A stretch of 64,000 nucleotides of DNA from the NCBI GenBank assembly GCA_019057385.1, contig JAHQJS010000004.1, forward strand, positions 64,001-128,000, in the 5' to 3' direction. The notes beneath the pieces were generated by a model that worked only from the letters and a program-made list of their open reading frames with translations, did not search any database and had not been told where the DNA came from. Source of the stretch: Candidatus Borrarchaeum weybense. GTDB taxonomy: Archaea; Asgardarchaeota; Sifarchaeia; Borrarchaeales; Borrarchaeaceae. Position numbers and translations under genes: made by a program. This document shows, piece after piece, positions 6,019 through 20,639 of the stretch (position 1 is the stretch's first letter; each line of letters opens with the position of its first letter).

Positions 6019-6168
6019 GGGCCCGTAGCTCAGCTAGGTAGATCAACCAGATAGTTGAGGCCGACAGCGTCGGGCTCTTATACCTATTTCAGGTAGAGAC
6101 ACCCGATGGCCACGGGTTCAAATGATCCAACCGCAATGATGGATCTGAAAGTCCCGTCGGGCCCGCCA
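6019..6168 (+). tRNA. tRNA-Lys(CTT) with three introns: 6042-6065 (about 22/23), 6081-6100 (37/38), 6123-6151 (59/60); CCA encoded
   Basis: Removing the three inserts gives a 77-nt cloverleaf GGGCCCG...TCGGG-CTCTTAA-CCCGA...ACGGG-TTCAAAT-CCCGT-CGGGCCC-GCCA; introns 2 and 3 form strict BHB motifs, intron 1 a relaxed one. Confidence 0.92.
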
Positions 6169-6181
6169 TTCTTTCAACAAA

Positions 6182-10850: not shown

Positions 10851-12503
10851 TCACTCAACAAAGTAAATTAGAGTTCTTGGATTTTCAACTTTGTAAACTA
10901 ACTTAAAGTTTTCAGGGATGTCCATTTCAAAGTATAACTCTGGAAGGTATTCTCTTGAATCTGATTCCATTGAGTCTAATACAATGTAACTGACATTTGA
11001 TTTCAAAATCGCATTTTCCAAAGTTTGATTTAAATGAAATTTTGGAAATCCTAAAACCTCCAATCTAGAGAAATGATAAAACACTAATGGCTTTCGCGCT
11101 ATTACAACCGCTTCAGAGAGCGCATTATCTTTTAGCCACTCTGCAGCTTTTACATATTCTTCTGTTGCAGGAGAGGGTATAACTCCAAATTCGATTAACT
11201 GAGTTTCAATATTCGAATTGATATTTGTCAAAGGTTCTGATATGTTTAGGGAAAAAGTAGGATTAACAGCAATTAATGAAGAGAGCAAAAGAATACTGTA
11301 AATATTTATGGTAACAATAATGGTTAAAGAAAGTCCCCCTAGAATTCTTGAAAACTTAATTCTCTTTAAAACTAGGAAATCCCAATTTCTTTGTGAATTA
11401 TAAATTCTCGCTATTGATATAGCTGCAAATACTGAAATCAGCGGAATAAGTGGGATAAGATATCTCGGCAATCGCGAAGGAAACCATGCATAAAAGAAAA
11501 GATGCAAGATGAAATACAAGTAAATAAGAGAACTTTTTTCCTTTATACCTAAGAAATAGACACCAGGAATTGCAAAAATCAAGATCGTAATGGGTACTGC
11601 AAAGACAGCTACAACAGAGTAAAAAATCAAGCCCTCAAAAGGTCTTGAAAGAATTTCAAGAGCAGAATGTGTTTGAAAATACTCAAGCATATTAACGTCT
11701 GAATATTGATTTGATACACCACTTGACACTGGATCTCTCCATAATTCAAGAAAACCAAAACCCATAGGTGTACCAAACACAATGGTATTTCGCAAGAACC
11801 ATGGAAAGGTAATAATTAAAAAACCTATAATAACCCAAATAAAAGCGATAAGTAAGTCTCTGGTATATTTTCTTTTTATTATATTGAAAATTAGTATGAG
11901 ACTGTAGGCAAACAGTATTAAGATGCCTGCGTATCGACTTAGGTAAGCCAAACCTATAAACATCCCTCCTAAAAATTGATTTTGGATTTCCTTTTTGAAT
12001 AACAAGAAGTAAAACGCACATAATGTAAAAAATACGAAAATGGTTTCAGTCATTGGAATTCCAGAAAACAACCAAAGTACAGGATTTACTGCAACAAATA
12101 ATGCTGCGATGAGTCCTGAACGGTCATTGGACAATTTCTTGCCAATAAGGTAAACTGGAATCACTGTAAGACTACTTATTATTATCGAAGGAACAATTGC
12201 ACTTTGATAAGTGACTCCTCCAAGTAAATAAGCCCCGCCGATAATTAATGGGTAAATTGGCGGGACTTTTTCTTCTGGATGATCGAATAATGTATAGCCT
12301 AATCCATGGGAAAGATTTTCACCTAGTATCAGAATACGAATTACATCAGGGATAACTAACCCTACTAAAGGGTTCATTCCTAAACACAATATTCGTAAAA
12401 CCAATGCTAAGACAAAAATAATAAGTAAAATCTGAGTATTTCGTTCAAGGAATACTCTCTGAAGTATATCTTTGGTTTTCCTTATAACGGGAGCATACAC
12501 CAT
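10851..12503 (-). CDS. GT-C membrane glycosyltransferase (PMT/ArnT-like)
   Basis: Multi-TM; PPIYP, PWFLRN..FG.P, PRYLIP motifs. Confidence 0.8.
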   Translation of the reverse strand: MVYAPVIRKTKDILQRVFLERNTQILLIIFVLALVLRILCLGMNPLVGLVIPDVIRILILGENLSHGLGYTLFDHPEEKVPPIYPLIIGGAYLLGGVTYQSAIVPSIIISSLTVIPVYLIGKKLSNDRSGLIAALFVAVNPVLWLFSGIPMTETIFVFFTLCAFYFLLFKKEIQNQFLGGMFIGLAYLSRYAGILILFAYSLILIFNIIKRKYTRDLLIAFIWVIIGFLIITFPWFLRNTIVFGTPMGFGFLELWRDPVSSGVSNQYSDVNMLEYFQTHSALEILSRPFEGLIFYSVVAVFAVPITILIFAIPGVYFLGIKEKSSLIYLYFILHLFFYAWFPSRLPRYLIPLIPLISVFAAISIARIYNSQRNWDFLVLKRIKFSRILGGLSLTIIVTINIYSILLLSSLIAVNPTFSLNISEPLTNINSNIETQLIEFGVIPSPATEEYVKAAEWLKDNALSEAVVIARKPLVFYHFSRLEVLGFPKFHLNQTLENAILKSNVSYIVLDSMESDSREYLPELYFEMDIPENFKLVYKVENPRTLIYFVE

Positions 12504-13915: not shown

Positions 13916-13953
13916 TTATTTTCTATGCTTCTGCAGAATATACCATAAAATTG

Positions 13954-14151
13954 TCAGACTTCGACAATTTCACAACGCACACGCTTGAGAATCTCTTCCG
14001 CTACTTCTGGCGCTGCTTTCATAACATAAAGATACTTTGGTGTACGAATTTTTATCTTGACAATGTCTTTTAGTCTCTTAATACGTGCTTCAATGGCATT
14101 TTCGGAAAGTTTTAAGATTTCATCTGGGTCGGTAATTTGTTTTGGCAACAT
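13954..14151 (-). CDS. rpl38e: Ribosomal protein eL38
   Basis: PKQI.D...RIKR....VKIKIRT.KYLY pattern. Confidence 0.88.
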   Translation of the reverse strand: MLPKQITDPDEILKLSENAIEARIKRLKDIVKIKIRTPKYLYVMKAAPEVAEEILKRVRCEIVEV

Positions 14152-14182
14152 TATCTCCTCTTGATTTCTTTATGTCCTTATT

Positions 14183-14320
14183 TGGTGGGCGGGATGAGAT
14201 TTTCAGAAAGAGCAATAATCTCTCTTTTCCTTTGAACTCACGACTTCCAGATCCATACATCAAGTGTATGAATACTCCGCCGCGTGAGGGCGGCGTCATA
14301 GCCAGCTAGACCACCCGCCC
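14183..14320 (-). tRNA. tRNA-Val(CAC) with two non-canonical introns: 14245-14274 (about 45/46, variable loop) and 14200-14230 (59/60, T loop); CCA encoded
   Basis: Spliced 77-nt cloverleaf GGGCGGG...CCGCC-CTCACGC-GGCGG-AGGTC-GTGAG-TTCAAAT-CTCAT-CCCGCCC-ACCA; the T-loop intron has a TTCA/TGAA central helix with 3-nt bulges. Confidence 0.9.
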
Positions 14321-14336
14321 AAAGAATTATTGAATC

Positions 14337-14498
14337 TTATCCGGTTAATTCACGTTTTTTCCATCTAAGGTCCTTTGAACGACATCGCCGACATTTCTTT
14401 GCGCCAATAGGGTTTCTTGCATAGCATTTTCTACAAATCATGTGGTAAAGTAAGTGCTTCCTTGCGATTTCTCTCAGTTCTGGATCAGCTACCGGCAT
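14337..14498 (-). CDS. rpl40e: Ribosomal protein eL40 (53 aa; absent from the ORF track)
   Basis: Manual translation MPVADPELREIARKHLLYHMICRKCYARNPIGAKKCRRCRSKDLRWKKRELTG; GGAG upstream. Confidence 0.95.
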   Translation of the reverse strand: MPVADPELREIARKHLLYHMICRKCYARNPIGAKKCRRCRSKDLRWKKRELTG

Positions 14499-14633
14499 TC
14501 ATTTGTCTCCTTTTCAATAAATTTCAAGTTTATAATTTTTTATGACACAATGCTGTCAAGTTTAGACTTTCATAGCTTTATAATCCTTTCGTTGAAGAAG
14601 TAAAGTCAAAATTTGAACCACAAAGAAGTTGTA

Positions 14634-15026
14634 TTATTCTTTAGGTTCTTTAAATTTAATGGATTCAGCGATTGAATCTATTTTCTCTTCCATAATTGCT
14701 AAATGGCGTACGATTTCGGTGATGTCCCTATCTGTGTTTACTCTTGAGAGATATAGTTCATATGAAGTGAAAAACAAAATTATAACACCTAAAATAAGAG
14801 CTGCATTTAAAGGCAACTCGGTCATAAATATAACACTTAAAAACTCAAACATAAGTGGTTCAAATGAAATGAGGATCATGGAAGCTAAAAGCAAAATCCA
14901 TATAAAGATCCAAAACAGCATTCCTCCAAGTCCAATTCTCTTACGATAAAACTGCCGCAATGTATGTATCACTAAAATGATCGCTGTTATTGCTGCAATT
15001 ATTTGAATACTACGAAAAACAACCAT
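14634..15026 (-). CDS. DUF2304-like membrane protein (GT2-associated)
   Basis: 3 TM segments followed by a Y....R....ITEIVR.LA coiled tail; adjacent to a DPM-synthase-like GT2. Confidence 0.75.
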   Translation of the reverse strand: MVVFRSIQIIAAITAIILVIHTLRQFYRKRIGLGGMLFWIFIWILLLASMILISFEPLMFEFLSVIFMTELPLNAALILGVIILFFTSYELYLSRVNTDRDITEIVRHLAIMEEKIDSIAESIKFKEPKE

Positions 15027-19238: not shown

Positions 19239-19289
19239 GTAGTAAATAACTGATTTTCAGTCCCAGGCGCATATCGACGATTTTATGTT

Positions 19290-19806
19290 TCATTCCATAA
19301 TAGTTTCAAGGATAACATGGGCAGAAGTCTTTTTAACTCCTGAAATTGCTGCAAGGTCTTTTAGAAAAGAGTCTAACTTAGCACGTCCAACCTGTGCAAT
19401 CAAATCTAGTTCTGATCCAGTCACCCGAAATAACCGTTGTGCTCTTAACGCCTTAATTTGGTCGTATGCTTCTTTTCGTCGTTCAGGATCGATCTGTATA
19501 AACACGAATGCTTCAGTTACAGATTCGCCAAGGGCTTCCATGGCTTTGTTTGTGAGGTCTATAAAGCCTCTACCAGTGCGGATAAAATCTATGTCTCTTA
19601 GCTTTCTTAGGTGGTTGGATAGGGCCTGACGGGTTATACTTAATTCATCACTCAGTTCATTTTGAGTTAAGACAATGGTGTGAACCTTTACGCTTTTTCA
19701 GGCACCTTAGAGCGGGAAGATCAACTCAAGTGGTGATTCCTGCAGCGTAAAGTTTTTTCAAGATCTGTAATTGTCTATCTGTAATTTTAACAACATTGCT
19801 GGCCAT
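19290..19806 (-). CDS. Lrp/AsnC-type HTH transcription regulator, two exons (19806-19737 and 19696-19290), 158 aa after splicing
   Basis: GGAGG precedes ATG 19806; spliced product MASNVVKITDRQLQILKKLYAAGKSVKVHTIVLTQNELSDELSITRQALSNHLRKLRDIDFIRTGRGFIDLT... followed by an AsnC-type C-terminal domain. Confidence 0.85.
19697..19736 (-). other. 40-nt bulge-helix-bulge intron within mRNA
   Basis: CTTTACGCT-G-CAGG-AA|T-CACC...GGTG-CCTG-AA|A-A-AGCGTAAAG; contains an in-frame TGA; length is not a multiple of 3; removal restores the frame. Confidence 0.82.
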
Positions 19807-20101
19807 GTTATATCCTCCGTTATTCTTGTTTACATGGCATTAAAATGGAATTTACATATTTACACATTTAATTATTTATTTGTAAAAAAAAGCTTACATA
19901 TTAAAAAAGTTGTGCAAGTTTTCAAATCAAAAACTGATTCTGATGTCAATATTATGATTATTTATAAAACCGTGAAATTATTTACGAAATTCCAAGTTTT
20001 ATGATAATCATATATCAATTATAATAAGCATGTAAAAAAAGAAAAAAAGAGAGGTTTGATGTCAATACCAAAGATGCAATGGACACTTTTTTTGAGATTT
20101 G

Positions 20102-20400
20102 GTGACCTACCTCGTGCGAAAGCCTCGAGGCTTCCTGCTTCAACGACAGACTCGATCCCCTTGCGGGTTACGGAGGTCTTATCTCCACAGGCTTAACATC
20201 CCTACGCCCCGTAGGTACTGCTAACGGTCGTGATGCAATCGGAGTATGCACCTTATCTTCAAGTGTGCGCATGATCCCTCCAATTGTTATTGATACCTTT
20301 CTCATACTACAGACCCCTCGATGCACGTGATGAAAGTTAACGCAAATTACCGCAACTCATCACCACGCTGAAGCTGTGGTGATTTCTTGCTTAACTACTC
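20102..20400 (-). mobile_element. Non-autonomous IS200/IS605-type element (299 bp) with an omegaRNA-like right end; inferred target motif TTTAC
   Basis: Left end TTTAC|GAGTAGTTAAGCAAGAAATCACCACAGCTTCAGCGTGGTGATGAGTTGC (hairpin); right end ...GAAGCAGGAAGCCTCGAGGCTTTCGCACGAGGTAGGTCAC; GC-rich relative to the flanks. Confidence 0.8.
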
Positions 20401-20639
20401 GTAAATAATGCGTTTTTTCGTCTTCCTAAACCGCGGTGTATCCTAACGAAATGATAAAAAGGGCGTCATATTCAAAAAGGTAGTAGGATTACGGAAGTGT
20501 TAAAATAACTCCTTCTGGAAAGCTATAGAACTGCGCAACGAGATTCGCATGAGAACCCCCCTTAACAAAAGATTGATAAATAGATTGAACTATACGGGGA
20601 GCAAAGCAAATACAACGAACATGAAATCGAGGTTCGTCA

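Follow-up and report, generated by a model that had tools for sequence, protein, structure and literature searches.

Evidence for a recently gained, probably spliced bulge-helix-bulge intron in the mRNA of an Asgard archaeal transcription regulator

How can a transcription regulator be made from a gene whose reading frame is broken a short distance behind its start codon? Such a gene lies in the window analyzed here, a 64,000-nt stretch of the genome of the Asgard archaeon Candidatus Borrarchaeum weybense. Read directly from the sequence, the gene encodes a 158-aa winged helix-turn-helix (HTH), Lrp-like regulator on the minus strand (19290-19806) and is split by 40 nt (19697-19736). Exon 1 (19737-19806) consists of the ATG start codon (19806-19804), which lies 8 nt downstream of a Shine-Dalgarno-like GGAGG (19814-19818) that is kept in congeners, followed by 23 codons and one additional nucleotide. 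Exon 2 (19290-19696) encodes the remainder of the winged HTH and a RAM/AsnC-like C-terminal domain, in a frame that is open from 19696 to the stop codon (19290-19292). If the 40 nt are left in place, the ATG frame is only a 26-aa ORF, closed by a TGA within the insert, which also puts a TAA and a TGA into the exon 2 frame; the sole other ORF listed in the gene is an 83-aa C-terminal piece (19290-19541). Removal of the insert by cuts at 19737/19736 and 19697/19696 joins ...GCAGGAA to AAAGCGUAAAG and yields a single 158-aa frame that reads ...LYAAG-K-SVKVHT... across the predicted junction. The sequence statements made in the original prediction for this locus, the bulge-helix-bulge (BHB) fold described below included, all hold. 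From the comparisons reported here, we consider it highly probable that the insert is a real and recently gained BHB intron, almost certainly spliced from the mRNA of the regulator.

The N-terminal part of the protein matches the Pfam HTH families MarR_2, HTH_Crp_2, HTH_24, and HTH_5 at or above their cut-offs, and the MarR_2 match begins at residue 8 of an intron-less ortholog, so that the helix with which the DNA-binding domain opens falls in exon 1. The AsnC_trans_reg family scores 20-23 bits, below its 25-bit cut-off, and the regulator passes no NCBIfam model; the ortholog profile matches the Pyrococcus feast/famine regulator PH1519/FL11 over positions 37-154 (E = 1.5e-9). Judged by these matches, the regulator is a distant Lrp/AsnC (FFRP) relative; its own family, which is separate and widely conserved in archaea, has the motif RTGRGFID. 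In the ca. 45 nt 5' of the GGAGG (19826-19868, minus strand), TGTAAA occurs three times; all congeners keep these copies whether or not they carry the intron, and they may be a putative operator or promoter element, perhaps one for autoregulation. Just upstream of the gene is a repeat element of ca. 305 nt (20102-20405), of which the genome holds ca. 40 full or partial copies with 80-97% identity. In one sediment metagenome run the depth of this repeat is ca. 1200x, compared with ca. 14x in its flanks, and contigs of several runs break at its ends. It also shows a weak, sub-threshold match to RAGATH-18 at 20132-20191.

The distribution of the insert was examined in a set of 176 homologous loci from 40 related genomes and from public genome and metagenome contigs. 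The 40-nt insert occupies one and the same position in four haplotypes: that of this genome, the Candidatus Borrarchaeum yapensis type (four further contigs), one metagenome contig, and the DZ3M.366 MAG. Because these four diverged haplotypes come from independent assemblies, MAGs as well as metagenome contigs, and because a contig from a separate DNA run (19272-19764) also contains the 40 nt, an assembly artefact, a risk raised with the original prediction, is rejected. The nearest relatives of the organism are Candidatus Borrarchaeum yapensis, a 'Promethearchaeota' MAG, and Candidatus Sifarchaeum, which places it among Asgard archaea in the Borrarchaeaceae/Sifarchaeia group. The gene is uninterrupted in two lineages within the genus or close to it, at 86-90% protein identity (89% for same-genus orthologs), in Candidatus Sifarchaeum subterraneum, and in all distant homologs, which include those of Freyarchaeia, Baldrarchaeia, Thermococci, Methanomethylicia, Bathyarchaeia, and others. 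Every homologous locus outside the Borrarchaeum-like group lacks an interruption at the site; of the 176 loci, 164 are clean in this respect and three more were judged so by eye. Aligned to intron-less orthologs, the spliced protein is gap-free across the junction (LYAAGKSVKVHT versus LYNSGKSVKVHT), as had been anticipated, and the intron corresponds to a gap of exactly 40 nt. The simplest history would be a single gain inside one genus of Borrarchaeum/Sifarchaeum-like Asgard archaea. A BLAST search of the genome revealed no further copies of the intron (the next-best match spans 20 nt, with E = 0.045); the intron is neither a repeat nor a mobile element. An extra Ser codon near 19394-19396, the S in GSELDL of the C-terminal domain, is present in all intron-bearing alleles and in no intron-less ortholog, and provides a second marker of the clade.

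The minimum free energy fold of the RNA from 19680-19760 (minus strand) is a BHB, with -24.1 kcal/mol and z = -3.3 relative to shuffled sequences. Its outer, exonic helix has 9 bp, eight of which are invariant, and is formed by CUUUACGCU (19744-19752) and AGCGUAAAG (19686-19694), the latter coding for Ser-Val-Lys. An unpaired G at 19743 stands opposite the A at 19695, and this G.A mismatch in the outer helix adjoins the 3' bulge, so that the motif is not perfectly strict. In the 4-bp central helix, CAGG within exon 1 (19739-19742) pairs with CCUG in the intron (19699-19702), and the pairing is complete in all four haplotypes. The central helix lies between two 3-nt bulges, AAU on the 5' side (19736-19738) and AAA on the 3' side (19696-19698), each of which contains one of the two predicted cut sites of the splicing endonuclease EndA. 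Beyond it, a 4-bp inner helix of CACC with GGUG (19703-19706) closes a small hairpin; the 3' strands of the central and inner helices are assigned from both the fold and the pair counts. The element thereby combines a central helix and two 3-nt bulges with flanking helices in exon and intron, and with cuts that restore the frame. Among the four haplotypes, 6 of the 40 intron sites vary; five of these are unpaired, and the sixth is a C-G pair of the inner helix that is U.G in one haplotype, with pairing retained. No pair is broken, standard pairs account for 96% of the pair cells, and no variation occurs in either bulge, in the central helix, or in the small hairpin. The four haplotypes are too alike for covariation to be claimed, and no compensatory double substitution was found among them.

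Intron-less congeners already contain part of this motif: AGCGUAAA (Ser-Val-Lys) pre-exists in them, and GUAAAG finds its complement in their CUUUAC (Leu-Tyr). The two codons that flank the insertion are Asn-Ser in intron-less and Ala-Ala in intron-bearing alleles (AAT TCG to GCT GCA), accompanied by a change of TAT to TAC, and the Asn-to-Ala change gives the outer helix 9 bp instead of 6. In the codons beside the insertion, 5 of 9 nt differ from the intron-less alleles, compared with 18% divergence overall (post hoc P of ca. 0.012). Given the pre-existing Leu-Tyr/Val-Lys complementarity and the helix-lengthening codon change, the intron appears to have landed where a BHB could form, and the exon seems to have adapted to the intron.

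To put a number on the likelihood of such a structure, both strands of the 4.18-Mb genome were scanned for BHBs with intron lengths of 14-150 nt, which produced 158,501 loose candidates. BHBs were counted as good as that of the regulator when the central helix was free of G.U and the inner and outer helices measured at least 4 and at least 9 bp, respectively; across the whole genome there are 32 of these per 1.15e9 site-and-length pairs, or ca. 3e-8 each. The end of exon 1 and the end of the intron share GAA, so that four registers give an identical product, and the BHB rule selects one of them. The resulting cuts coincide exactly with the boundaries set independently by the alignment of intron-less orthologs. 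Thus, from the rarity of such BHBs, with the boundaries fixed independently and four registers equivalent, the chance that a BHB coincides with the insertion boundaries is ca. 1e-7.

A genome-wide search for further BHB-interrupted genes was suggested along with the original prediction. By the same cutting rule, BHB introns were verified in cbf5, rrp41, and a tRNA-Lys gene. A census of ORFs joined by BHBs, in which canonical cuts were compared with cuts offset by 1-2 nt, showed no genome-wide excess at any stringency. Introns in mRNA are few, and because the genuine ones are lost among junctions of neighboring genes, the census can neither count nor vouch for them. Inspection of the 280 strongest BHBs produced none that was convincing besides the regulator intron. 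One candidate, at 11995-12055, was rejected since its unspliced frame runs through a membrane protein, and a 30-nt candidate in secY was rejected as false. With the strict motif, no intron was detected in secY or rfcS.

The enzymes needed for splicing of this kind are encoded in the genome. Two EndA paralogs (C4:663429-664052 and C5:195818-196489), 29% identical to each other, both have N- and C-terminal endonuclease domains; one has the Tyr/His/Lys catalytic residues (alpha-type), and the other, which is beta-like, is without the His. Presumably the pair is of the broad-specificity (alpha-beta)2 type. RtcB is also encoded. The EndA cutting rule was checked at three other sites in the same genome. 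The first is the tRNA-Lys(CTT) gene in the window (6046-6170, plus strand), which ARAGORN recovers only after removal of two strict BHB introns of 20 nt (6081-6100) and 29 nt (6123-6151). ARAGORN and Rfam scans of the unspliced window identified no tRNA or RNA family; the tRNAs were missed because they are laden with introns. Elsewhere in the genome, ARAGORN called a tRNA-Pyl with anticodon CTA (C7:143743-143811), and contig C1 contains a tight cluster of seven intron-less tRNA genes together with a second RtcB-like gene (e.g., 19435-19896 and 13917-15008). This contig is unlike the remaining genome and may be contamination, which is estimated at 7% for the genome.

The other two sites are in protein-coding genes. 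The cbf5 intron (C5:277852-277886) is a strict BHB of 35 nt that splits the codon for the catalytic Asp, the same codon that is disrupted by the crenarchaeal cbf5 intron. Its removal restores the catalytic motif GGTLDP, and the unspliced gene gives a TruB_N match that begins only at profile position 17. Two congeners and one complete Freyarchaeia genome show the same truncation of this match; cbf5 of Candidatus Sifarchaeum subterraneum is uninterrupted. In the exosome subunit gene rrp41, splicing of a 31-nt BHB intron (C3:140668-140698) unites the two halves of the RNase_PH match (profile positions 1-64 and 59-130). Like the regulator intron, that of rrp41 has a mismatch beside the 3' bulge.

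Purifying selection acts strongly on both exons of the regulator, each in its own frame: dN/dS is 0-0.07 across the four intron-bearing haplotypes, whose dS reaches 0.32. The four sites that vary in exon 1 are without exception synonymous when read in the ATG frame, and non-synonymous in either alternative frame. The HTH is encoded by codons 25-74, which lie directly behind the TGA without a start codon of their own; their dN/dS is ca. 0.03, and the most distant pair of haplotypes differs there by 9 synonymous and 1 non-synonymous changes. The C-terminal domain is under purifying selection similar to that of the HTH part. If the 40-nt insertion had simply inactivated the gene, leaving a pseudogene that is never spliced, the end of the unspliced frame after 26 codons would be accounted for, as would the fact that the junction is seen in no RNA read. 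Such a pseudogene should not, however, have kept its insert in four haplotypes at this level of synonymous divergence while both halves remained constrained in their own frames, and a BHB placed exactly on the insertion boundaries would be the ca. 1e-7 coincidence calculated above. Nor was a decaying pseudogene, which the original prediction had allowed for, seen in the relatives, where the BHB pairing is intact. The same selection bears on the idea that translation starts only at the internal ATG at 19541, giving a stand-alone RAM-domain protein of 83 aa and leaving the HTH part dead. An ORF with an ATG does exist, and stand-alone RAM-domain proteins are known, such as the 92-aa chain 2djw, but exon 1 and codons 25-74 are under purifying selection as strong as that on the RAM part. 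Because both exons are constrained, we dismiss the pseudogene as very improbable and regard use of the 83-aa protein alone as just as difficult to sustain.

Selection on both frames would also be expected if the frames were joined in translation rather than at the RNA level, with ribosomes either shifting frame in a programmed manner or bypassing the 40 nt. The regulator has a stop codon shortly behind a GGA codon, an arrangement also seen where ribosomes take off in phage T4 gene 60. The frame of exon 1 runs into its stop at intron nucleotides 10-12, and that of exon 2 stays blocked up to a TGA whose final base is the last nucleotide of the intron; because these open frames never overlap, a +1 or -1 shift cannot work. 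Against bypassing, there is no GGA-matching landing codon near the 3' end of the insert, and the BHB geometry would be left unexplained. Joining in translation is therefore scarcely credible, and since neither frameshifting nor bypassing fits, removal of the 40 nt from the RNA is the sole remaining reading that uses both exons.

Parts of the region are held in 20 public sequencing runs, two of which are recorded as RNA and two of which are labelled metatranscriptomic but flagged as probably DNA. Three of those four runs were examined together with one DNA run. The RNA contigs reach none of 19444-20100, and the RNA-recorded run X20 contributed one contig that covers 19268-19443 only. The mechanism that we propose for RNA splicing begins with the pre-mRNA, in which exon 1 (CUUUACGCU plus CAGG) would pair with exon 2 (AGCGUAAAG) and with CCUG of the intron, displaying two 3-nt bulges with a 4-bp helix between them. 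Heteromeric EndA (alpha plus beta) would cut after the second nucleotide of each bulge, and RtcB would ligate the exons and probably also close the intron into a circle. Only the spliced mRNA would then give the 158-aa protein, the unspliced mRNA being limited to the 26-aa peptide. The structure, its exact boundaries, its conservation, the selection on both exons, and the presence of the enzymes are direct observations, from which we infer cleavage and ligation in vivo. We accordingly predict an intact and expressed regulator, with a winged HTH and a RAM/AsnC-like domain, that is interrupted by a BHB intron. The central proposal made for this locus, that an EndA-type BHB intron makes expression of an Asgard regulator dependent on the tRNA-splicing machinery, is strongly supported by the comparative, selection, and enzyme evidence, with splicing itself as the predicted step.

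Splicing of the regulator mRNA might in addition be regulated and so serve as an on/off switch, which would extend the explanation given here rather than compete with it. The model for such a switch is HAC1/XBP1, in which a spliceosome-independent, protein-only cleavage takes place at RNA stem-loops and a tRNA ligase, RtcB in metazoa, joins the products. There the frame change turns the transcription factor on, the endonuclease is the stress sensor IRE1, and regulation is central. Protein-only splicing and a frame change would be shared by the two systems, but the tRNA endonuclease would act here in place of IRE1, and the likeness is one of analogy only. In favor of a switch, synthesis of the protein would be wholly dependent on splicing, and the G.A mismatch lies beside the bulge at the 3' site. 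However, because the rrp41 intron is mismatched beside its 3' bulge as well, a permissive EndA may just tolerate such mismatches, and that of the regulator is more likely tolerated than regulatory. Similar introns in housekeeping genes likewise argue for constitutive splicing. We thus view a regulatory switch as unlikely.

At least three BHB introns in protein-coding genes, those of the regulator, cbf5, and rrp41, are verified in this genome. A plausible but still tentative reading is that EndA-dependent introns are spreading from tRNA into protein-coding genes in Borrarchaeum-like Asgard archaea, and that the regulator intron has been caught soon after its gain. If so, these close relatives of eukaryotes would need tRNA-splicing enzymes to express regulators and genes of core information processing, and such expression could be tuned through those enzymes. 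What is new here is the host gene, a transcription regulator, and the phylum, Asgard. With a dated gain and both kinds of allele in one genus, the effects of intron gain on a coding sequence become visible, including the exon changes that make the motif. Gene callers truncate such genes, of which only the 83-aa ORF was listed here, and Asgard proteomes, core genes included, will be mis-annotated until calling is BHB-aware.

In the literature searched, protein-spliced introns in archaeal coding sequences are confirmed only for crenarchaeal cbf5, to which a 5' UTR case in Haloferax can be added; other archaeal mRNA BHB introns are only predicted (PMC2738675, PMC7714728). Our search, whose coverage was incomplete and which leaves novelty unproven, brought up no earlier description of BHB introns in protein-coding genes of Asgard archaea. 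Asgard tRNA genes have multiple non-canonical introns (PMC11291895; bioRxiv 10.64898/2026.10.13.758758), reported at ca. 2.1 intervening sequences per tRNA gene in the Borrarchaeaceae (bioRxiv 10.64898/2026.10.13.758758), and introns in protein-coding genes are mentioned in neither of these two sources. The tRNA introns resemble the regulator intron in motif, size range, machinery, and lineages, whereas the host here is an mRNA. The BHB intron in the 5' UTR of the Haloferax volcanii HVO_1309 mRNA, demonstrated in vivo and in vitro (Schwarz 2020, PMC7714728), is likewise an EndA mRNA substrate outside tRNA and rRNA; unlike that leader intron, the regulator intron, with its predicted splicing, breaks a reading frame. 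The closest parallel is the crenarchaeal cbf5 pre-mRNA, whose coding region contains a BHB intron of 16-44 nt that is cut by the tRNA splicing endonuclease (Watanabe 2002; Yokobori 2009, PMC2738675), is often frame-shifting, and has been gained or lost by lineage (PMC2738675). The description of the regulator intron as a "second class of archaeal mRNA intron" was therefore an overstatement, as it is of the same class as that of crenarchaeal cbf5, and this genome also has BHB introns in cbf5 and rrp41. Like the crenarchaeal intron, that of the regulator is a short BHB intron in a coding region with lineage-specific gain. In contrast to the crenarchaeal case, the splicing proposed here would act on the mRNA of a transcription regulator rather than an RNA-modification enzyme, in the Asgard phylum, and on an intron gained far more recently, within one genus in which intron-less sister alleles are extant.
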